Origin: Candidatus Multivorans sp.
GTDB taxonomy: Bacteria; Acidobacteriota; Thermoanaerobaculia; Multivoradales; Multivoraceae
Direction: 5' to 3'
Length of the DNA stretch: 64,000 nucleotides
NCBI GenBank assembly: GCA_965224025.1
Contig: OZ245033.1
Span: 867,571-931,570 of the forward strand
Part shown: positions 18,750 through 44,414 of the stretch, piece by piece
Position numbering within the stretch: the first letter of the stretch is position 1
Layout of the letters: each line of letters opens with the position of its first letter
Program-made: the position numbers and the translations under genes
Notes under the pieces: generated by a model
Told to the model about the DNA's origin: nothing
The model's database searches: none
The model's input: only the letters and a program-made list of their open reading frames with translations

Positions 18750-19714
18750 GCCTCGAACGCGACTACGAACTGCTGACCACGGCAGCCGCGCTCTGCGACC
18801 CGCCGCGGGCCTCTCGGCTCGAACTCATGGGACCCGACCGCGAACGGTTCTTCGGCGGCATGATCACCGCGGCGGTCGAGGGCCTTGAGCCCGGCCACGG
18901 CGCGTTCGGCTTCATCACCGATGTCCGCGGGCGGGTGCTCGCCAGCGCCATCGTGCTGGCTCTCGAAGACCGCCTCTGGCTCGAGATCCCCAGGGGCCGC
19001 GGCCGGACGATCATCGACCACCTGGAGAAGTACATCGTCACCGACCAGGTCGAGATCCTCCCGCTCGGCGACATGGCCTCCGTCCGGGTCGCCGGCCCGC
19101 GGAGCGCCGAGGTCCTGGCGGGCCTTGGCGCCACCGCTGCCAACGACCTCAACGAACCGTGGAGCCACGCCCAGGTCGAAGTGCTCGACTACCAGGCCCG
19201 CCTCTCCCGGGAAGGCCAAAGCGCCGTGCCCACCTTCTCCCTCTGGCAGTCGTCCGCGATCGCCCCGCTCCTGGCCGAAGACCTCGCCGAGGCCGGCATC
19301 CGCCAAGTCGCCGCCGAAGCGACCAAAGCGCTCCGCATCGAACACGGCTATCCACTTTGGGACGTCGACTACGACGACTCGAACCTGCCCCAGGAAACGG
19401 GCATCGAGGACGCCGTCGACTACGAGAAAGGCTGCTACCTCGGCCAGGAGATCGTCGCCCGCATCCACTACCGCGGCCAGCCGGCCCGCCGCATGTGCCG
19501 GCTCTTCTTCGCGCCCGGACACATGCCGGCCGCCGGCGCCGAGATCGAGTTCGACGACCGCGCCGCCGGCACCGTGACCAGCGTCTGCAGATCGCCCCGC
19601 CACGAAACCGCCATCGGCCTCGCCCTCCTGCCACGCCGCGCCGTAGAGGCGTTGCCAGACGCGAACGTGCTAGTCGAGGGTCGCGACGTGCACTTCGAAG
19701 CGCTCGGCACTTGA
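18746..19714 (+). CDS. ygfZ: Folate-binding YgfZ/GcvT-like protein
   Basis: Start at ATG 18746 (ATGA overlap with the HAD stop). Carries the signature KGCYLGQEIVARIHYRGQ. Confidence 0.85.
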   Translation: MSLERDYELLTTAAALCDPPRASRLELMGPDRERFFGGMITAAVEGLEPGHGAFGFITDVRGRVLASAIVLALEDRLWLEIPRGRGRTIIDHLEKYIVTDQVEILPLGDMASVRVAGPRSAEVLAGLGATAANDLNEPWSHAQVEVLDYQARLSREGQSAVPTFSLWQSSAIAPLLAEDLAEAGIRQVAAEATKALRIEHGYPLWDVDYDDSNLPQETGIEDAVDYEKGCYLGQEIVARIHYRGQPARRMCRLFFAPGHMPAAGAEIEFDDRAAGTVTSVCRSPRHETAIGLALLPRRAVEALPDANVLVEGRDVHFEALGT

Positions 19715-19843
19715 CACGGCCCGCCCCTCGACGATGCCGGGCGCTCGACAAGACTGCCTGGTTCTCACCGTGACCTCTTGACGCCGCCAACCGTCCGCAT
19801 GCCTCACCCGCCGGAGAGTCGTTCCGGGCTCGAGTCGCAGCCG

Positions 19844-20362
19844 CTACATTTCCGCTCTGAAGACCTCCACGATGCGGTCTCGCAGGTCGGCGATCTCCGG
19901 GCAAAGGCTAAAGAACTGACGCCGTCGGGCTACTGACTTCTCGGTCATCGCGCCTCGGCCGCCACCCGGACGCCGAGGGTCCCCGTACTCCTTGAGGAGG
20001 CGTTTGAAGACTGTCTCTTTGAGACGTGGATTCGACCGCACGTCACTCCACGAACCCCCAATCTCCTCGCGATAGGCCACACAGGCGTACACCTCAACTT
20101 CCGGCTCCGCCGGACAGCAGAGCAGGATCACACCCTGACGCCTGAGACGGTCCTCGAGATCGCGCATGGCACTGTCGGCAGCCCTGTCCGCGTCGGGAAA
20201 GAACAGCCAAAAATCCATGAAGCCGTAGCGGGAAGCCAGTTCGTTCCGAACGATCCTGACCGCTTCGTCATAGCCGCCGAGTCGGGGGTTCGTGAGTATC
20301 GTCACTCTGGCGTTCGGTTTGGCCGCATCCGCCAGGATCATCTCCACCAGCGGTTTCAGAAT
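19844..20362 (-). pseudogene. 3' part of the ATPase-partner gene split by the IS1595 element
   Basis: Frame of ORF 19844..20401. The first 13 codons of that ORF are IS-end sequence. From ILKPLVEMILADAAKPNARVTILTNPRLGG.. onward it continues the 5' part at 22951..23009. Confidence 0.8.
20355..20362. repeat. Target-site duplication TTCAGAAT (left copy)
   Basis: The identical octamer recurs at 22951..22958, directly outside the two inverted repeats. Confidence 0.85.
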
Positions 20363-20397
20363 GGGGATTATATACGAGAGTGCCGGGGCCGAACGGC

Positions 20398-20673
20398 TCA
20401 CCGGCGCACGTTCTTCGGTGACTTGATGTAGTTGACCTTCACTTCGGCGGCCAGCGCATCGGTCAGTTGCTCGAACGTGGCGTCGATCCGCAAGTCCTTC
20501 CGCAACTCCGCAGCGGACGGCTGGTAGTTCGGATGAACGATGTCCACCGTTGGACGGTTCGGTCCTTTGTCCTTCTCTACTTGCTTTCGAGCCACGCCAG
20601 CTTCTCCCTCAGTTCTGAGATCATGTTTGCTTTGGCGATGCTGTCTTCGCTCGTACCCTTGGCGAGATTGCAC
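20398..20673 (-). CDS. Small hypothetical ORF at the IS end (true start probably GTG 20547)
   Basis: ..VDIVHPNYQPSAAELRKDLRIDATFEQLTDALAAEVKVNYIKSPK. The listed 5' part overlaps the MTase-HNH 3' end. It occupies the same position as ORF 44226..44408 in copy 2. Confidence 0.3.
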   Translation of the reverse strand: MQSRQGYERRQHRQSKHDLRTEGEAGVARKQVEKDKGPNRPTVDIVHPNYQPSAAELRKDLRIDATFEQLTDALAAEVKVNYIKSPKNVRR

Positions 20674-21888
20674 GGTCGGCAGAGCAGTTGCAGGTTGTCG
20701 AGTTCGTCTCCGCCGCCTTCGGCTTGCGGCACGATGTGGTCAACTTCCATGACGTTGAACTGGGTGAAGGTGGAGCACATGGCACACCGCGCTTCCTGCT
20801 GGCCGTAGAGCAGGTGCTTGTGACTGGTCGGCTTCGGCGGCGCTTGCGACTCCGGGACGCTCTCTGCGGTCCAGTACTGGATGTCGTGGAGCACCGTACC
20901 CATGAACGAGACTTCGTTCGTCAGCCGCTCCTTGACGAGCTTGTACGCCATGTCGCTGATGTCCATGCCGATCCACTGGCGGCGCAAACGCTCCGCCGCT
21001 ACGCAGGCTGTGGCGCAACCGCAGAACGGATCCAGGATGATGTCGCCCTCGTTCGACGATGACCGGATGATCCGTTCCAAGAGTGCTAGCGGTTTCTGGG
21101 TCGGATAGCCGACGTTCTCGGAGGACTGCGAGTTCAGGAAGTTGATGTCGAACACATCTGTGTGCCGGTTGCCCTGGGTCGTGTCCACTGCCTTGATGAT
21201 GTCGAAGTCGTTGCGGTTGATCTTCCCTTTGGCTTCCTTCCGGGCCAGAACAGCTTCGTCGTAGATGTACAGGTAGCGCTGTCCGTTCATTCGCTTCGTG
21301 TTGTAGCCAGCCCGAATGAGTTGCTGCTTCCGTGGCGACAACTCGGAATCGTAGGTCGCGGTGTAGTGGAACTTCGTGGAGCGCGAGTAGAACAGGACCG
21401 TGTCGTGAGCGCGCAGAAACTTCTTGGCCCGCGAGTTCGCCACCTTCTTGTATGACCACACGATCTCGTTGCGGAACTGGTTCCGCCCGAAGATGGAGTC
21501 CATCAGCGTCTTGAGGTAGTGGCTGGCGGTTGGATCGCAGTGCAGGTACACGCTGGCCGTGGGCTTCATAACACGCCGTAGTTCGAGCAGCCGCACTGCC
21601 ATGTAGATCAGGTACGCCTTCATGCCCTTCGAGTGCGCGGTGCCCGCCGCGTCGATGGTCTGGTACAGCGCCGGGTGGTGTTCCGCGAGTTCGCCGTGCC
21701 CGCCGCCTTGCTGCCTATCGGCGCAGCGAAGTTCCGGTTCTTGTTGAACGGCGGATCGAGGTAGACCAGATCTACGCATCCGTCCGCCATTCCGCGCAGG
21801 ATGTTGAGGTTGTCGCCCGTGTGGATCGCCCGAACCCAATCCTGCGGTCCGTATCTTGCAGGGACAATTCCGCGCCGTCCGCCGTCAT
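20577..21888 (-). pseudogene. Amino-DNA-methyltransferase (DPPF type) fused to an HNH nuclease; two frame changes plus a short deletion
   Basis: ATG 21888 overlaps the transposase stop (ATGA). DWVRAIHTGDNLNILRGMADGCVDLVYLDPPFNKNRNFAAPIGSKAAG is in a second frame. HGELAEHHPALYQ..SVYLHCDP..GYPTQKPLALLERII..DPFCGCATACVAAE and the C-terminal CAMCS..DHIVPQAEGGGDELDNLQLLCRPCNLAKG are in the third frame (track ORF 20577..21839). Confidence 0.75.
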
Positions 21889-22883
21889 GCCGTCGCTTCC
21901 CGTGCGCCCGAAGGCAGGCCGTTGTCGGCGATTAGGTCACGGTAGCGGAGGCGCTTGCCATCCATGTCTTCGGCGAAGCGGTCCAGTTGCTCCGCCGTGT
22001 CGAACTCGCGGACGTTCTGCCGCCAGCCGAACTCGTCCACGTAGCGCTGCAACTGCTTCGGCGAGAGCTTGTGGAACGTGCCTTTGTGCGAACGCTTGAG
22101 CATGGACCACAGGGACTCGATGCCATTCGTGTGGATCTTGCCGTCCACGTACTCGCCGACCGAGTGCTTGACCGTGCCACGCTCATACTCGGTCAGACCC
22201 GCGTAGGCCCCGGTGTCGTCGGTGTAGACCGTCGCGCCGGGTTCGACATGCTCCCGGACGAATGCCTGTAGGGTCTCGCCATCGGTCGAGCGAACCACGC
22301 GGGCCGCTACCTGTTTCGTCTCGCGGTCCTTCACTCCCACCACCGCCGTCTTGCCGACCGTGCCGCGACCTTCCATCGTCTTCCGCTTCTTGGCGTGCAT
22401 GTTCTTCCGCAACCCGCCGATGTACGTCTCATCGGCTTCAACCGGGCCGGGGAACAGGACGTTCGGCCCGTTCGTCTCAAACGCCGCCCGGAGACGCTGC
22501 GCCATGAACCACGCGGTCTTCTGAGTGACACCGAGGTCGCGGTGCAGCTTCATGCTCGACATGCTCTTGAGGCTGGTCGTCAGCAGGAACGCCGCGAGCA
22601 TCCACTTCTGGAAGCCGATCTTCGAGCCTTCCATGACGGTGCCGGTCTTCGCGCTGAACCGCTGGTAGCAACCCTTCTCGCGGCAGCGGTACGGCATCGA
22701 CTTGTGCTTCGCACCCGTCTGGACATTGTTGGACCCGCAGGCCGGGCAGGTCGGCCCGACGGGCCAGCGGCGCTTGACGTACCATGCCTCCGCCGTCTTG
22801 TTGTCGGGGAATATCCGCATCATCTCCACCAGAGTGATGCCCTTCCGGTATGCCTTGCCGGGTGCCTTGTGCTCAGTCATCAT
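21885..22883 (-). CDS. IS1595-family transposase (N-terminal zinc ribbon + DDE)
   Basis: CPACGSNNV..YRCREKGCYQRFS zinc ribbon, MKLHRDLGVTQKTAWFMAQRLR and VEADETYIGG..VYTDDTGAY..HTNGIESLWSMLKR. It is strongly similar to ORF 41783..42769 in the C-terminal two-thirds. Confidence 0.9.
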   Translation of the reverse strand: MMTEHKAPGKAYRKGITLVEMMRIFPDNKTAEAWYVKRRWPVGPTCPACGSNNVQTGAKHKSMPYRCREKGCYQRFSAKTGTVMEGSKIGFQKWMLAAFLLTTSLKSMSSMKLHRDLGVTQKTAWFMAQRLRAAFETNGPNVLFPGPVEADETYIGGLRKNMHAKKRKTMEGRGTVGKTAVVGVKDRETKQVAARVVRSTDGETLQAFVREHVEPGATVYTDDTGAYAGLTEYERGTVKHSVGEYVDGKIHTNGIESLWSMLKRSHKGTFHKLSPKQLQRYVDEFGWRQNVREFDTAEQLDRFAEDMDGKRLRYRDLIADNGLPSGAREATA

Positions 22884-22890
22884 GCCCAGA

Positions 22891-22920
22891 ATCTTACAGG
22901 AGAGTGCCGGGGGAAGTCAA
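22891..22920 (-). promoter_or_regulatory. Candidate outward-in promoter in the IS end (TTGACT-18-TAAGAT)
   Basis: Minus strand reads cTTGACTtcccccggcactctcctgTAAGATtctgggcATG. The -10 lies only about 7 nt from the ATG, so the mRNA could be leaderless. Confidence 0.3.
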
Positions 22921-22950
22921 GCGCTTTCGGCACTCTCGTATATAATCCCC

Positions 22951-23009
22951 TTCAGAATGTAGCCATTGAGAGTGGGGTCTTCTGGAATCACCAGAACGCG
23001 CACACTCAC
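22951..23009 (-). pseudogene. 5' part of the ATPase-partner gene (GTG start overlapping the ATPase stop), ending in the right TSD copy
   Basis: GTG AGT GTG CGC GTT CTG GTG ATT CCA GAA GAC CCC ACT CTC AAT GGC TAC ATT CTG AA translates as VSVRVLVIPEDPTLNGYILK. GTGA overlap with the stop at 23006-23008. Confidence 0.75.
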
Positions 23010-24229
23010 AAAGCCGCCTCCATCCACCCCTCCGTGAACAGATCGGCCACACCGCCGGCAGCGACGGCCTTGCGGAAGTCGGGAATGTCCTGCAAGGCCG
23101 TGATCGTCGCGTCGCCCTTGTCCGCGTTTCGCCGGCAGACGTAGGTTGTGGCGTACTCGGTTCTCTTGAGCCACGCGAGAACGGCCGGCGAATGAGTGGT
23201 CGCCATCACTTGTGTCGACCGGCGCGCGGCGTTCGACCGGAGAAGCTCCAGGAGCAGGCGCGTACGGCTCGCGTGAATGCCGTTCTCGATCTCCTCGATC
23301 GTCATGATCCGCGGCATGTCGGGCTGAAAGAAGGCCGCCGCGATTGCAGCGAACCGAAGCGTGCCGTCACTCAACACCGGCGCCGGAAACTCTCTGTTCC
23401 CTTCCCGCAACATGAAGAGCGGCTCGCCCACGGCACCAGGTAAGGTGGCAACGCTGTCTACTTCCGCCGGCCGCAGCTCGCGCAGCCACTCCAGATAGCC
23501 GGCTTCCGTTTCCGGATCCGTGCAGATCGTCCTGACCAGGGCGGCGAAGTTCTCTCCGCGCTCGCCCATGCGGTCTACCTGCTGCGCCTGTGAGTAGCCT
23601 CTCAAGACGGTCGGCGCGGGGTCGATTCGCTGCGTGTTGACCAATTCGTCCGCCACCCGCGCAGCGTCCGCCCGATGCTGCGGTTCCACCCGCTTCGCCC
23701 CTTCGAACTGCCCCAGAACTGGCTGGCTCCGCTCGAACTCCAAGTGGCGGGGACGGCCAACCTTGCCGTGGTAATACTCCACTCGATGAACGGGACTCCC
23801 GATGCCGCCGCGGTCGGCATACCGGGAGTCAAAGACGGAACGGCCTGCGTACACCAGCCTCTCCTGTGCCACATGCCCCCTCCGGGGAGACACGGTCACC
23901 GAGTACCGCCATCGCCTTGTCGCCTTCCCAACACTCAGCCTGCCGGCCGCGTCAATCGTGAAAGTCTCCGGCTGTTCGCTCCCTTCGAAACACGCCTTCG
24001 CGCTTCCGCCTCGGATTCCCTCCCAGACTTCACTGGTCGCGCTTCTTGGCTTGCCGTCGAGAATCTCGCTCACCGTGAAGCGGCTACCCACTCCCTGCAG
24101 CACGCGAAGTGCATCGAGGAAATTCGACTTTCCGCTGGCATTGGCACCAACGAACAGGTTCATTCCGCCCAACGCCACGGTCACGTCGCGAAAGCTCTTG
24201 AAGTCCCTGATGGTGATTCGGTCGATCAT
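23006..24229 (-). CDS. SMC/RecF-like ABC-type AAA ATPase (AAA_15/AAA_21 class)
   Basis: IRDFKSFRDV..LFVGANASGKSNFLDAL (Walker A), LSDGTLRF (signature), IMTIEEIENGIH (Walker B) and MATTHSP. Confidence 0.9.
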   Translation of the reverse strand: MIDRITIRDFKSFRDVTVALGGMNLFVGANASGKSNFLDALRVLQGVGSRFTVSEILDGKPRSATSEVWEGIRGGSAKACFEGSEQPETFTIDAAGRLSVGKATRRWRYSVTVSPRRGHVAQERLVYAGRSVFDSRYADRGGIGSPVHRVEYYHGKVGRPRHLEFERSQPVLGQFEGAKRVEPQHRADAARVADELVNTQRIDPAPTVLRGYSQAQQVDRMGERGENFAALVRTICTDPETEAGYLEWLRELRPAEVDSVATLPGAVGEPLFMLREGNREFPAPVLSDGTLRFAAIAAAFFQPDMPRIMTIEEIENGIHASRTRLLLELLRSNAARRSTQVMATTHSPAVLAWLKRTEYATTYVCRRNADKGDATITALQDIPDFRKAVAAGGVADLFTEGWMEAAL

Positions 24230-24478
24230 GGCGTTGCCTGCCCGCTCTATCGCCGCCCGGCCGCACGCTGCCTGAGAACGGGGCTAGGCAGCGCTGGCGC
24301 CGCGCCGTCAATCAACGGACGCCACGGAGGGTAGCAGCGTTCCTCGGCGCCATGGTGCCCCCGTGACAGTCCGCAATCGTGGACTGCACCTACCACTGCT
24401 TGACCAGCGGCTGGTCCTTTGGCCCGGGCCAGCGTCACACGTTGCGAACCGCCCGAGAGCGCCCGCACTCGAGCTCCC

Positions 24479-25936
24479 TCAATACCGCGGCAACGACGGA
24501 TCTACTTCCTCCGCCCAGGCATCGATTCCGCCGGCCAAGTTGTACGCCTGCTGGAAGCCGTGGTCGCGGAGGATGTGCGTGGCTCTCGTCGACCGCGGAC
24601 CGTGGTGGCAGTGGACGACCCACAGGCGCGATGGGTCGAGTTCATCGACCCGGCCCTCGAGTTCGGCGACCGGGATCAGGGTCGAGCCGTCGATCCGGCA
24701 GATCGCGTACTCCTGCGGACCCCGGACGTCGAGAATGCTGAACTCGCGGCCGTCGTTCATCCAGGACTGGACCTGGGTCGGCGTCACGTCGATCATCTCG
24801 TTTAGGGCCGGTTCCTCAGCGACGGCGGGGATGCCGCAGAACTGCTCGTAGTCGATGAGTTCGGTCTGGGTCGGGTTCTCCGAGCAGATCGGGCAGTCCG
24901 GGTTCTTGCGCAGCTTGAGTTCGCGGAAGCTCATGCGGAGCGCATCGAATAGCACCAGACGACCGATCAGGGGATCGCCCTGGCCGATGATCAGCTTGAT
25001 CACCTCGTTGGCCTGAAGGCTGCCGATGATGCCGGGCAGCACGCCGAGGACGCCGCCTTCGGCGCATGAGGGAACGAGTCCCGGCGGCGGCGGCTCGGCG
25101 AACAGGCAGCGGTAGCAGGGGCCCCTGGCGCCCCAGAAGACGGACACCTGGCCCTCGAAGCGGAAGATGGAGCCGTAGACGTTCGGCTTGCCGAGCAGGA
25201 CGCAGGCGTCGTTGACGAGATAGCGGGTCGGGAAGTTGTCCGTACCGTCAACGATCAGGTCGTAGTCTGCGAAGATCTCGAGCGCGTTGCTCGAGTCGAG
25301 CATGACCGGATGCGGCACGAGTTCGATGTGGGGGTTCACCTCGCACAGGCGCTCGACCGCGGCGTCGATCTTGGGGCGGCCCACGTCGGCGTTGCTGTAG
25401 AGCAACTGGCGGTGCAGGTTCGACTCGTCGACGACGTCGAAGTCCACCAGGCCGAGGTGGCCGACTCCGGCGGCGGCGAGGTACATGCCGAGCGGCGAGC
25501 CGAGGCCGCCGGTGCCGATCATCAGCACCCTGGCGGCCTTGAGCTTCAACTGCCCCTCGGAGCCGACCTCGGGCATGATCAGGTGCCGGCTGTAACGGAG
25601 GATTTCCTCCGGGCTCAGCTCGGTGGCGGTCGCCTGGGCCGGGGCCGGTGGTTCCGCCACCGTGCCGCCCGCGATCGACGGGATGATCGCCAGCGTCGCG
25701 TCGCCGACGATCGTCGTCGCCTCCCGTCCCAGGTAGCGCACGTCCTCGTCGTTCAGGAACAGGTTGACGAAGGTCCGCAGCTTGCCGTCGTCGCCGAACA
25801 GGTGGGGCCGCAGCCCTTCGTACCGCGTGACGAGCTCCTCCATCGCCTCGCCGACGGTCGCTCCGGCCACGGCAACCTCGGCGTTCTCGTCGGCGAAGCC
25901 CCGGAGGGGCGTGGGGATTTGTATGAGTACGGTCAT
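24479..25936 (-). CDS. moeZ: CysO/ThiS-like ubiquitin-fold domain fused to a MoeZ-type E1 adenylyltransferase with C-terminal rhodanese
   Basis: The N-terminal 91 aa end in IIPSIAGG. The E1 core follows (RYSRHL, IGTGGLGSP, CYRCLF..CAEGGVLG, CPIC), then the rhodanese domain (VVHCHHGPRS). Confidence 0.9.
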   Translation of the reverse strand: MTVLIQIPTPLRGFADENAEVAVAGATVGEAMEELVTRYEGLRPHLFGDDGKLRTFVNLFLNDEDVRYLGREATTIVGDATLAIIPSIAGGTVAEPPAPAQATATELSPEEILRYSRHLIMPEVGSEGQLKLKAARVLMIGTGGLGSPLGMYLAAAGVGHLGLVDFDVVDESNLHRQLLYSNADVGRPKIDAAVERLCEVNPHIELVPHPVMLDSSNALEIFADYDLIVDGTDNFPTRYLVNDACVLLGKPNVYGSIFRFEGQVSVFWGARGPCYRCLFAEPPPPGLVPSCAEGGVLGVLPGIIGSLQANEVIKLIIGQGDPLIGRLVLFDALRMSFRELKLRKNPDCPICSENPTQTELIDYEQFCGIPAVAEEPALNEMIDVTPTQVQSWMNDGREFSILDVRGPQEYAICRIDGSTLIPVAELEGRVDELDPSRLWVVHCHHGPRSTRATHILRDHGFQQAYNLAGGIDAWAEEVDPSLPRY

Positions 25937-41495: not shown

Positions 41496-41725
41496 GGGTG
41501 GTGGATTCTGCGGCCGTTGCAGGAGGCGTAGAGTTGGGTCGCGCTGGGCAGCGAGGCCGTCGGAGCACTGGTGTGTTTGCACCCGCAATGCAAGTTTGGC
41601 CCGGACCGTGATCGGCGTTCTGACGCTGGCGGCGCGGCTCTTGCCGCGACCCCGTATGCAAGAGTGACGTTTCCGCCGCGGTCTCTGTCCAGCGCGACCA
41701 TTTGAATGGGGATTATATATTAGGC

Positions 41726-41754
41726 TTGACACGGGCGCTGATTTCCCGTAGTGT
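41726..41754 (+). promoter_or_regulatory. Candidate sigma70-type promoter inside IR-L (TTGACA-17-TAGTGT)
   Basis: TTGACA at 41726-41731, a 17-nt spacer, and TAGTGT at 41749-41754. A GGGAGA Shine-Dalgarno sequence precedes ATG 41783. Confidence 0.35.
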
Positions 41755-41782
41755 CTAGGGACACTGGACGGGAGATGAAACG

Positions 41783-42769
41783 ATGAAGCACAAGGCACCC
41801 GGCAAGGCTTACCGCAAGGGACTGACGTTCGTGCAACTGGCGCGGATGTTCCCCGATGAAGCAGCCGCGCGAGACTGGTTCGAGACGTACCTTTGGCCCG
41901 ATGGAGTGAAGTGGTGCCCGAACTGCGGCGGCGACAACACGCACGCATGCAAGCACAAGCAGATGCCGTACCGCTGCCGCGACTGCAAGCGGTACTTCAG
42001 CGTCAAGACCGGCACGCTCATGGCTGGTTCGCCGTTGCCTCTGTTGACGTGGCTCTACGCGATCTACCTCGAACTCACATCGCTCAAGGGCGTATCGAGC
42101 ATGAAACTGCACCGTGACCTAGGCGTCACTCAGAAGACCGCTTGGCACATGCTCCAGCGCATCCGCGAAGCGTTCGCCGCCGAAGGGCCGGAAGTCCGGT
42201 TCGACGGTCCCGCCGAAGTGGACGAGACGTACTTCGGCGGTCTGCGGAAGAACATGCCGAAGTGGAAGCGTGCGGAGCTTGAAGGTCGCGGCACGGTCGG
42301 CAAGACCGCCGTGGTGGGCATCAAGGACCGCGAGACCAAGAAGGTCGCGGCGAAGGTGGTCCGCTCCACCGACGGCGAGACCCTACAGGCGTTCGTGCGC
42401 GAGCACGTCGAACCCGGCGCGATGGTGTACAGCGACGATACCGGGGCGTACAGCGGTCTGACCGAGTACGAGCGTGGCACGGTGAAGCACTCGGTCGGCG
42501 AGTACGTGGACGGCAAGGTCCACACGAACTCGATCGAGAGCTTCTGGTCGATGCTCAAGCGGGCGCACAAGGGTGTGTTCCACAAGATCAGTCCGAAGCA
42601 CCTGCAACGCTACGTCGATGAGTTCGCGGGTCGGCAGAACATCCGCGAGTACGACACGCTGGCGCAGATGGTCGCCGTCACGGAGGGACTCGCGGGCAAG
42701 CGGCTCCGCTATCGTGACCTGATCGCCGACAACGGCCTGCCGTCGGGCGCGCGCGAGGCCGCCGCATGA
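41783..42769 (+). CDS. IS1595-family transposase
   Basis: CPNCGGDN..YRCRDCKRYFS, MKLHRDLGVTQKTAWHMLQRIR and VDETYFGG..VYSDDTGAY..HTNSIESFWSMLKR. Confidence 0.9.
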   Translation: MKHKAPGKAYRKGLTFVQLARMFPDEAAARDWFETYLWPDGVKWCPNCGGDNTHACKHKQMPYRCRDCKRYFSVKTGTLMAGSPLPLLTWLYAIYLELTSLKGVSSMKLHRDLGVTQKTAWHMLQRIREAFAAEGPEVRFDGPAEVDETYFGGLRKNMPKWKRAELEGRGTVGKTAVVGIKDRETKKVAAKVVRSTDGETLQAFVREHVEPGAMVYSDDTGAYSGLTEYERGTVKHSVGEYVDGKVHTNSIESFWSMLKRAHKGVFHKISPKHLQRYVDEFAGRQNIREYDTLAQMVAVTEGLAGKRLRYRDLIADNGLPSGAREAAA

Positions 42770-44212
42770 CCATCCTCGGTTCGTTCAGTCTGGTTCCAAA
42801 CAGCCTCTACTACGGCGACTGCCTCGAAGTCATGGGCGGTTGGCCAGCCGAGTCGGTGGATCTGATCTACCTCGATCCGCCGTTCAACTCGAAGGCGGAC
42901 TACAACCAGTTGTTCGGCACCGAGAACGGCGTGCCGGCCCAAGTTCGGGCGTTCACCGACACATGGACATGGAACGACTCGGCGGCCGAGCGGTACGACC
43001 GTTTCAGCCGTGCAGTCGCGCATCCCGCGCACAAGGCGGTAGTCGGCCTGCACATGGCGCTAGGTCCATCGGGGATGCTCGCGTACCTCACCTACATGGC
43101 CGAGCGGCTCGCGGAGTGCAAGCGCCTGCTCAAGCCGACCGGCTCCATCTACCTGCACTGTGACCACACGGCGGGCGCGTACCTGAAGATGCTCATGGAC
43201 GCGATCTTCGGAGCGAACAATCGCCGAAGCGAACTCCACTGGTACTACTACAACAAGATGCACGACAGCCGGAAGAAGCTGTTTGCTGCCGCCACGGACA
43301 CAATCTTCTTCTATGTCAAGGATGTGGACTCCGGTTTTTCGTTTGAACAACTTCAAGAACGCCGCGAAAAGCCCGTCAAGCAGCTTGTACGAGCCAAAGT
43401 CAACGGCCGCATGGTCAACAAGCGAGACGAAGACGGTCGGCTGATGTACCAGACCAAGACACATAGAACCATTGACAATGTGTGGCGGATACCCTGTTTG
43501 CAACCAGCATCGAGGGAGAGATTAGGCTGTCCAACACAGAAGCCCCGTGCGCTGTTGGATCGCATCATCAAGGCGTCTTCTAGGGAAGGTGACTTGGTGC
43601 TTGACCCGTTCTGCGGTTGTGGCACGACGATAGACGCGGCGAATCGACTGCAACGGCAGTGGGTCGGCATCGACCTTTCACCGTTCGCCACTCGCCTTGT
43701 GCGTGACCGCAGGCTCAAGGATGCGAGTATCCAGATCTTCGGTATCCCGACAGATGTTGAAGGCGCACGGCTCCTGCTACGCAACAACCCGTTCGACTTC
43801 GAGGCGTGGATCGTTACGTCGGTGGACGGGCTGGCGGCGAACGAGGTCCAGGTAGGCGACGGCGGCATCGACGGGCGCGGCAGGATGTTCACCGTGCCGG
43901 ACGATGAAACAGGCTTGGTGCTCGCTCAGGTGAAGGGGGGGGTACACCGCATCGGCGCTGCGGGACTTCGAGGGCACGATGGGCCGCGAGAACGCCACGG
44001 CGGGCATCTTCGTCACCTTGAAGCGCGTCACAACGTCCAGTGCCCGCGCGGCTGCCAAGGCGATGGGCGAGTACCGCGTAGGCGCGACGCGCTACCCTCG
44101 GCTCCAGTTCTGGTCCGCAGAGGAGTATCTGAGGGGCGTCCGTCCTCACCTACCCGCGATGGCCGACCCGTACACCGGCAAAGCAGTTCAGACCGACATG
44201 TTCACCGGATAG
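42766..44212 (+). pseudogene. Amino-DNA-methyltransferase (DPPF) fused to a PD-(D/E)xK (Mrr-like) nuclease domain, out of frame at a G8 tract
   Basis: VDLIYLDPPFNSK, SIYLHCDH and GCPTQKPRALLDRII..DPFCGCGTTIDAAN. Next GDGGIDGRG..LAQVKGG, then a frame change to YTASALRDFEGTMGRENATAGIFVTLKR (ORF 43979..44212). With G7 the gene would be 482 codons, uninterrupted. Confidence 0.8.
43935..43942 (+). repeat. G8 homopolymer at the frame break of the MTase-nuclease gene
   Basis: gtgaaGGGGGGGGtac. The downstream frame has a TGA at 43931-43933, so the shift must occur inside the tract. Confidence 0.9.
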
Positions 44213-44225
44213 CAGGGAGGAAGCG

Positions 44226-44408
44226 TTGCCCAAGAAGCCGAAGCGCCACACGGAACACAAGAAGGTGTACAAAGCCGAGTACGGCGGCGCTACGCCCGCG
44301 CAGGTCACGCTTGCGCTTCTACGCTACCGTCCAAACGCACCCGAAGCCGTCACGAAGCGTTTGCCACCGCAGGTTCAAGCCGACCCCGCTATCAAGTCTA
44401 GTGTATAA
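44226..44408 (+). CDS. Small hypothetical ORF at the IS end (TTG start)
   Basis: MPKKPKRHTEHKKVYKAEYGGATPAQVTLALLRY. Its stop lies inside IR-R, and its position is equivalent to 20398..20673 in copy 1. Confidence 0.3.
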   Translation: MPKKPKRHTEHKKVYKAEYGGATPAQVTLALLRYRPNAPEAVTKRLPPQVQADPAIKSSV

Positions 44409-44414
44409 TCCCCC

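Follow-up and report, generated by a model that had tools for sequence, protein, structure and literature searches.

Within a 64,000-nt stretch of the Candidatus Multivorans sp. genome (contig OZ245033.1, positions 867,571 to 931,570; hereafter "the window", the whole stretch that was analyzed, whose own numbering is used throughout), a 2588-bp insertion sequence (IS) occupies positions 20363-22950, with all of its genes on the minus strand. It lies between the two parts of a small conserved gene, the target gene, which directly follows a gene for a defense-type ATPase. Loci and contigs from other assemblies are cited below by L number and public proteins by P number. The features of this region, where ORF denotes an open reading frame, are as follows:

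19844-20362, minus strand: 3' fragment of the target gene, 172 codons plus stop, annotated within a chimeric 185-aa ORF (19844-20401)
20355-20362: target-site duplication, left copy, TTCAGAAT on the plus strand and ATTCTGAA in gene orientation, identical to 22951-22958
20363-20385: terminal inverted repeat (TIR) at the cargo end (right inverted repeat, IRR, in transposase orientation), 23/23 complementary to 22928-22950, with a chance expectation of 0
20398-20595, minus strand: orf65, a conserved 65-aa ORF and the last gene of the element, ending 12 nt before the terminal repeat
20577-21888, minus strand: pseudogene of a beta-class N6/N4 DNA methyltransferase fused to a C-terminal HNH nuclease, recognized by Pfam on its body
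21885-22883, minus strand: IS1595-family DDE transposase of 332 aa, apparently intact, recognized by Pfam and NCBIfam profiles
22891-22920, minus strand: TTGACT-18-TAAGAT, resembling a sigma-70 promoter and lying directly before the transposase start codon; it matches at the level of the consensus only (1 found versus 0.6 expected) and overlaps an inner copy of the terminal-repeat core
22928-22950: terminal inverted repeat at the transposase end (left inverted repeat, IRL)
22951-22958: target-site duplication, right copy
22959-23009, minus strand: 5' fragment of the target gene, 17 codons (MSVRVLVIPEDPTLNGY), which as it stands reads into the IS and stops after 30 codons
23006-24229, minus strand: the upstream partner, an intact 407-aa AAA_21/AAA_15 (ABC-type) ATPase (AAA_21, 7e-32) whose stop overlaps the target start

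The boundaries of the element are defined to the base. Its two 23-bp TIRs are perfect, GGGGATTATATACGAGAGTGCCG at 20363-20385 being the exact reverse complement of 22928-22950, and a search of the window allowing up to 3 mismatches recovered these two copies only, with none recovered in 100 shuffles. Directly outside them stands the 8-bp duplication TTCAGAAT (20355-20362 and 22951-22958), whose only two occurrences in the window these are and whose reverse complement occurs nowhere in it. Repeats and duplication thus agree base for base with the initial annotation, a model's reading of the letters alone, which had also called an 8-bp duplication the hallmark of IS1595 transposition; the family does usually make 8-bp duplications (PMC8101967).

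Deleting 20363-22958 brings together, on the minus strand, 23009..22959 (51 nt) and 20362..19844 (519 nt) and leaves an open frame of 189 codons plus stop, whose GTG start (23009-23007) overlaps the TGA of the ATPase ORF as GTGA (23009-23006), so that both the in-frame reconstruction and the start-stop overlap proposed at the outset hold. Searching with the rebuilt 189-aa protein revealed 383 uninterrupted homologs of 185-192 aa across phyla, covering 96-99% of the query, which disposes of an objection that the initial annotation had raised against itself, namely that no continuous homolog might exist anywhere. The motif NGYILKPLVEM spans the junction, the N-terminal MSVRVLVIPEDPTLNGYILKPLVEM is conserved across it in the homologs, and neither half of the gene bears a further lesion. 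The 17 codons of the 5' fragment carry a near-invariant IPEDP motif that the insertion now separates from the rest.

Related genomes preserve the site in its empty form, as syntenic loci L002, L003 and L004 show. In L003, which belongs to a related genome of 4.94 Mb, 6.3 kb align with the window at 86% nucleotide identity, the insertion point falls within an ungapped block of 763 bp, ATTCTGAA occurs once only at the empty site, and the gene order is that of the window (ThiS/ThiF/rhodanese, ATPase, 187-aa gene, GCV_T-like, HAD). The filled form was found in separate assemblies of two sequencing runs: Logan contigs L094 (ERR13602196, covering 19456-22124) and L095 (ERR13605531, covering 19456-22026) span the left junction at 100% identity, and L001 (ERR13602196, covering 22532-24858) spans the right junction, likewise at 100%. 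These contigs bear directly on the possibility that the element was mis-joined during assembly, for example through a repeat-induced chimera, and that the gene is intact in the organism. The region is evidently hard to assemble, since the Logan contigs break inside the transposase, leaving 22125-22531 uncovered by all three, and related transposases are encoded at least twice elsewhere in the genome. Yet both junctions recur without a mismatch, an exact 8-bp duplication together with an in-frame conserved motif is not expected of a mis-join, and the same architecture is seen at 50 other sites. We therefore consider an artifact extremely unlikely, and the assembly join that the initial annotation had named as a possible refutation is excluded.

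As the gene now stands, its main part is read as the chimeric 185-aa ORF, whose first 13 codons (MSRSAPALSYIIP) derive from the IS. Gene callers do report this ORF, as had been anticipated: it is public protein P0001 and a called gene on two Logan contigs. We rejected its interpretation as a real, unrelated gene. A different question is whether the insertion is old and fixed, with the chimera, expressed by read-through from the IS, serving as the functional form in this lineage. Its GTG overlaps the TGA of orf65, the last ORF of the IS, as GTGA (20398-20401), and the IS genes are co-oriented with it, so that transcription and translation could continue from the IS into the truncated target gene and expression is conceivable; moreover, the cargo methyltransferase had time to decay and the insertion was found in both runs examined. 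Against such an age, repeats and duplication have stayed perfect, the lesions in the cargo may be older than the insertion, related genomes at 86% nucleotide identity have the empty site, and the 5' fragment remains intact, in frame and at family consensus, which would not persist long if useless, while the chimera itself lacks strand beta-1 and the near-invariant E10/D11 of the rebuilt protein. We regard a fixed, functional chimera as very improbable. A recent insertion is plausible given the perfect repeats and duplication and the otherwise unblemished gene halves; of the "recent, cleanly resolvable insertion" first proposed, the resolvable part stands, whereas recency is only plausible, no empty allele from the same population having been found.

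Evaluating the transposase against profile libraries, we found that it matches Pfam PF12762 (DDE_Tnp_IS1595; E 3.4e-42, 144.5 bits with a cut-off of 27) and NCBIfam NF033547 (transpos_IS1595; 193.6 bits with a cut-off of 75), both above their cut-offs, which supports the IS1595-type label given initially. It is one uninterrupted 332-aa ORF of the same length as in its relatives, with no programmed frameshift, as is usual for the family, and of the 89 positions with a conservation of 98% or more in 119 relatives it keeps every one, among them D151, D222, E256 and K263, the last of these 7 residues after E256. The cysteines of the N-terminal ribbon (C46, C49, C67 and C72) are conserved across the relatives and kept in the window transposase, and most relatives pass the Pfam Zn_ribbon_IS1595 model. 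IS1595 elements generally have a single transposase gene encoding an N-terminal zinc finger and a C-terminal DDE domain, the zinc-finger or ribbon domain being present in all IS1595 groups except IS1016 (PMC8101967). The window transposase is identical to public protein P0248; its identity reaches no more than 39% with the IS1595-family transposases of PLSDB plasmids, where those relatives are annotated only as "IS1595 family transposase", and no more than 68% with the transposases of 185,579 species-representative genomes.

Transporter ISs, known for the IS1595 and IS66 families, are defined as IS-like elements that carry one or more passenger genes unrelated to transposition inside their terminal repeats (bioRxiv 10.1101/2021.05.26.445724). 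With a methyltransferase-HNH gene and orf65 lying between the transposase and the cargo-end repeat, the element is a member of the IS1595 family of the transporter-IS kind, and it reaches 2.6 kb because of this cargo. It is probably an unnamed IS. Its group may be that of ISNwi1, which is reportedly described by Siguier, Gagnevin and Chandler in 2009 and in ISfinder as having passenger genes; the ISNwi1 end motif ggnnatTAT, which goes with a DDEK signature, would fit the window ends GGGGATTATAT.

Close relatives of the element, with transposases about 89-96% identical and near-identical 23-bp repeats, stand at four other sites, each with a perfect 8-bp duplication:

L088: duplication CTTGATTG, element of 2619 bp
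L090: duplication TTCGGGAA, element of 2656 bp
L091: duplication ATCCTGAA, element of 2624 bp
L092: duplication ATTGCTAA, element of 3431 bp, in a genome that also holds an intact homolog of the target protein (P0006)

Scanning the species-representative genomes for the transposase more broadly yielded 80 loci, mostly in marine or sponge-associated metagenome-assembled genomes (MAGs) from many phyla, and complete elements could be delimited at 46 of the 80 (1.5-6.0 kb, ends GGGRATTATATAC, perfect 8-bp duplication). One 2649-bp element occurs twice in the chromosome OZ241737.1 (L054 and L059), at two separate sites whose perfect duplications differ (AAAAAATT and TTTTCAAT), which is direct evidence of intragenomic transposition in the lineage.

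Pooling 51 sites (the window and loci L008-L092) revealed a target signature: A or T stands at duplication position 2 in 50/51 sites and at position 7 in 51/51, the A/T share at positions 1, 3 and 6 is about 78%, and the bases immediately outside are G/C-rich. ISApl4, another member of the IS1595 family, likewise prefers A/T-rich 8-bp targets (PMC12561309). In the window, which is 67% GC, 8-mers with at least 6 A/T make up 0.67% of all 8-mers; such sequences being rare in this genome, ATTCTGAA in the GYILKP codons is among the few suitable targets. Sites of close relatives resemble one another: ATTCTGAA in the window, ATCCTGAA in L091, and TTCGGGAA in both L090 and L008. The pooled sites also bear on whether the element moved by a route other than DDE chemistry, such as homing by its cargo nuclease. 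HNH nucleases drive the homing of some mobile genes, and the element does encode an HNH domain. However, inverted repeats together with a duplication of constant 8-bp length, at 51 A/T-rich sites that are unrelated to one another, are the mark of DDE transposition and not of site-specific homing, family members with other cargo or without HNH have the same ends and duplications, and the fusion gene in the window is disrupted upstream of its HNH domain, so we give homing next to no credence.

DDE transposition would account for the locus as follows. The transposase would bind the 23-bp terminal repeats and join the 3' ends of the element to target strands cut 8 bp apart, with gap repair then duplicating ATTCTGAA; this chemistry is established for DDE transposases generally and would extend to the window element. 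The lineage inserts into short A/T-rich 8-mers flanked by G/C, one of which the codons TAC-ATT-CTG-AAA of GYILKP supply, and the insertion point lies at codons 18-20 of the 189-aa gene, itself translationally coupled to the upstream ATPase. The element's own operon, transposase to methyltransferase-HNH to orf65, is co-oriented with the host operon; the target gene is split, and the chimeric ORF starts inside the IS.

Considering these lines of evidence together, we put at roughly 95% the probability that the 2588-bp IS1595-family transporter IS (20363-22950) transposed into a conserved 189-aa gene coupled to a defense-type ATPase. Several observations weigh against this reading. What documents the empty site is a relative at 86% identity only, not the same strain, and the search for an uninterrupted allele proposed by the initial annotation, which succeeded in that related genome, returned 0 matches in Joint Genome Institute (JGI) metagenome contigs for the exact empty-site 24-mer. 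No identical second copy of the window element was found, its closest relatives being 84-91% identical at the nucleotide level, so that this particular copy is at most putatively active. The Zn_ribbon_IS1595 model scores the window transposase at 18.7 bits, under its cut-off of 25.4, the sole exception to its agreement with the IS1595-family features examined. Lastly, the chimeric ORF could in principle be translated through its GTGA overlap with the orf65 stop, and loss of function of the target module is something that we infer.

Seeing a conserved small gene coupled to an ATPase, we assessed the pair for signatures of defense, a partnership on which the initial annotation was silent. The ATPase matches the PADLOC models for PDC-M07A over its full length (1e-68 to 1e-59) and those for AriA, AbiLi and HEC-01A more weakly, so it has the profile of a PDC-M07 component A ATPase. 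Neither the target protein nor 15 of its homologs matches any PADLOC partner model, a Pfam family or an NCBIfam family, even at E up to 10, apart from a sole faint RTasDnaG-like match in PADLOC (E 0.039), and none of the papers searched mentions "PDC-M07". The pair of a 407-aa ATPase and a gene of about 187 aa with a 4-bp overlap recurs in L002-L007; among relatives the small gene always lies behind a PDC-M07A-like ATPase, and neighbors of the pair in other genomes include AbiJ, PIN/Phd and Mrr genes. We interpret the pair as a candidate anti-phage operon, or defense-type module.

The AlphaFold model of the target protein is confident (predicted local distance difference test, pLDDT, 90.7). 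It places E10 after a strand at 4-9 and D74-x-D76 after a strand at 68-72, these residues being invariant or nearly so among homologs. A Foldseek search of the model against the PDB gave no match at E <= 1e-3, only generic alpha/beta matches at E >= 4.6e-3, with DnaG at rank 36 (E 0.13). The small protein may be a Toprim-like nuclease, an idea kept as a hypothesis by the lack of a significant PDB fold match. Because the insertion cuts the first strand and E10/D11 off from the bulk of the protein, the module is probably inactive, and inactivation of the two-gene module by the insertion, with the ATPase itself intact, is the most likely outcome.

The interval upstream of the ATPase differs between genomes. 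Between the ThiS/ThiF/rhodanese gene and the ATPase lie about 2.6 kb in L003 (4186-6780) and 250 bp in the window (24230-24478), the extra sequence in L003 holding an AbiJ_NTD4/Abi_C gene and a 133-aa ORF. The spot at 24230-24478 appears to be a small variable defense islet at a conserved chromosomal position.

Turning to the cargo, which the initial annotation had also left unmentioned, the methyltransferase body (ORF 20577-21839) matches Pfam N6_N4_Mtase (6.5e-43) and HNH (6.6e-12), with M.RsrI, M.MboIIA and CcrM as nearest solved relatives of the methyltransferase. The gene ancestrally started at an ATG (21888-21886) that shares the sequence ATGA with the transposase stop. This start codon, whose ORF now ends after 38 codons, a fragment with the DPPF motif (ORF 21620-21790) and the body each occupy a frame of their own. 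Comparison with the intact 395-aa gene of L088 reveals a 49-nt out-of-frame deletion at 21693/21692 that removed AFKDTWTLDDVDLSWH, and with it a conserved FKDTW segment, between edges of microhomology (GCACGG / GTGCGG). The deletion is matched at 100% identity in Logan contigs of two runs and is hence real rather than an assembly error. Unlike its relatives, the window copy also has no repeat tract after the start codon (~21885-21890). With the deletion and the loss of the 5' repeat tract, the window methyltransferase is dead, and without the tract it is not itself phase-variable.

The middle of the methyltransferase (window ~21115-21455, element ~1495-1838) gives no blastn alignment with L088, L090 or L091 and is collinear with L092. 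This middle is probably the target-recognition region, and the differing middle regions suggest, as far as alignments go, that otherwise similar elements may carry methyltransferases of different specificities. As for orf65, the gene calls in L088, L090, L091 and L092 include an orthologue of 65-66 aa at the corresponding place; orf65 has no match in Pfam or NCBIfam. Across the 46 complete elements, a Pfam survey of their ORFs revealed about 20 cargo ORFs that are DNA methyltransferases, with domain counts of 13 for N6_N4_Mtase, 9 for HNH, 3 for C5 methylase, 3 for N6_Mtase and 1 for EcoRI_methylase, and further examples of MvaI/BcnI, GmrSD_N, KilA-N and RhuM.

In relatives, the ATG of the cargo methyltransferase overlaps the transposase stop as ATGA and is followed directly by a perfect tract of 7- or 8-nt repeats with 8-15 units, as listed here with the resulting state of the frame:

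L088, 6003-6062: GCGGGAC x8, OFF
L090, 5000-5076: GCGGGAC x11, OFF
L091, 5180-5242: GCGGGAC x9, ON
L092, 5000-5069: CGGGGGC x10, OFF
L008, 4986-5048: GACGCGG x9, ON
L037, 6653-6773: 8-nt unit x15 just after the methyltransferase ATG, OFF, in a more distant element
L070, 4970-5032: a different 7-nt unit x9 just after the methyltransferase ATG, OFF, in a more distant element

With 9 units (L091 and L008) the ORF runs through the whole methyltransferase-HNH fusion (446 and 520 aa), and with 8, 10 or 11 units (L088, L092 and L090) it reaches a stop after 54-61 codons. The relatives, unlike the window copy, therefore have the makings of a phase-variable switch, a 5' repeat whose unit is not divisible by 3 and whose copy number sets the frame, which suggests that they may carry phase-variable methyltransferases on insertion sequences. 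Placing the window element in this setting, we tentatively propose, at a little short of an even bet, that it represents, in decayed and "locked-OFF" form, an undescribed IS1595-type lineage of transporter ISs distributed over marine and sponge-associated bacteria of many phyla. The typical cargo of this lineage would be a methyltransferase, often nuclease-fused, that is coupled by ATGA to the transposase stop and switched by 7- or 8-nt repeats, and here one such element would have knocked out a candidate anti-phage module. If the repeats truly switch expression, insertion sequences would be vehicles by which epigenetic or restriction functions that can be switched pass from phylum to phylum within marine communities associated with hosts.

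Further members of the lineage reside in the same genome. A second IS1595-type transporter IS lies in the window at 41708-44413 on the plus strand (2706 bp), with a 328-aa transposase (41783-42769) 70% identical to the first, an N6_N4 methyltransferase starting from an ATGA overlap (42766), and a C-terminal Mrr_cat-like nuclease domain that is seen only by bridging a frameshift near 43950. Its terminal repeats are imperfect (18/22) and no intact duplication remains (ATTTGAAT versus CTTCCAAG), which suggests an older or rearranged insertion. A third transposase of the lineage, P0128, is encoded outside the window on the same chromosome (5,047,675 bp) and shares 75% identity with the first and 74% with the second, so the genome hosts at least three diverged members.

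Returning to the transposase end of the first element, an additional inner copy of the terminal-repeat core (GAGAGTGCCGGGG) lies at 22895-22912, 18 nt inside the transposase-end repeat. This copy, which was compared with 20371-20388 and 22928-22942, forms a 15-nt hairpin with the transposase-end repeat and covers part of the sole promoter-like site that precedes the transposase ATG; its role may be to attenuate read-through or to bind transposase at a second site. Scanning the window for Rfam families and tRNA genes gave no match.

For annotation, the consequence is that the public 185-aa protein is an IS-gene chimera, the real gene being the 189-aa partner of a defense-type ATPase. The element also serves as an example of a transporter IS that is resolved cleanly and in full and whose preference for its target can be measured.

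Compared with known systems, the insertion of an IS that leaves a duplication behind and a gene that can be restored is a routine and well-documented type of event. The window element resembles known IS1595 transporter ISs in its single DDE_Tnp_IS1595 transposase with an N-terminal CxxC...CxxC, its repeats starting with GGGG, its 8-bp duplication and its passengers, and differs from them in its distant transposase and in a cargo made of a methyltransferase-HNH fusion and orf65. With ISApl4 of the IS1016 group it has in common perfect GGGG-starting repeats, 8-bp direct repeats, A/T-rich targets and an intragenic insertion, which is frequent for ISApl4; that element, however, is 712 bp long, with no zinc-finger domain and no cargo, whereas the window element has 2588 bp and three genes (PMC12561309).

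The ATPase pair resembles PDC-M07, PARIS AriA/AriB, AbiLi/AbiLii and split OLD-type systems in joining an ABC-ATPase to a small gene, here with a 4-bp overlap. Toprim domains, as in the OLD, AriB and RloB partners, have a conserved Glu behind the first and a DxD behind the third strand of a four-stranded parallel sheet, a placement that the motif positions of the small protein would fit. The pair differs from the named two-gene systems in that its small protein has no PADLOC, Pfam or NCBIfam match and no significant fold match in the PDB, so that it is at most a putative member of any named defense system. Phasevarions, finally, involve phase-variable DNA methyltransferases switched by simple-sequence repeats, as known in host-adapted pathogens from Type III mod and Type I hsd genes. 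The cargo of the relatives shares with them a simple-sequence repeat tract that sets the frame right after the ATG (8, 9, 10, 11 or 15 units), and differs in that an insertion sequence carries the tract, which starts where ATGA joins the methyltransferase to the transposase stop, that the enzymes are beta-class, Type II-like and fused to HNH, or EcoRI-methylase-like, and that the hosts are uncultured marine or sponge-associated MAGs.

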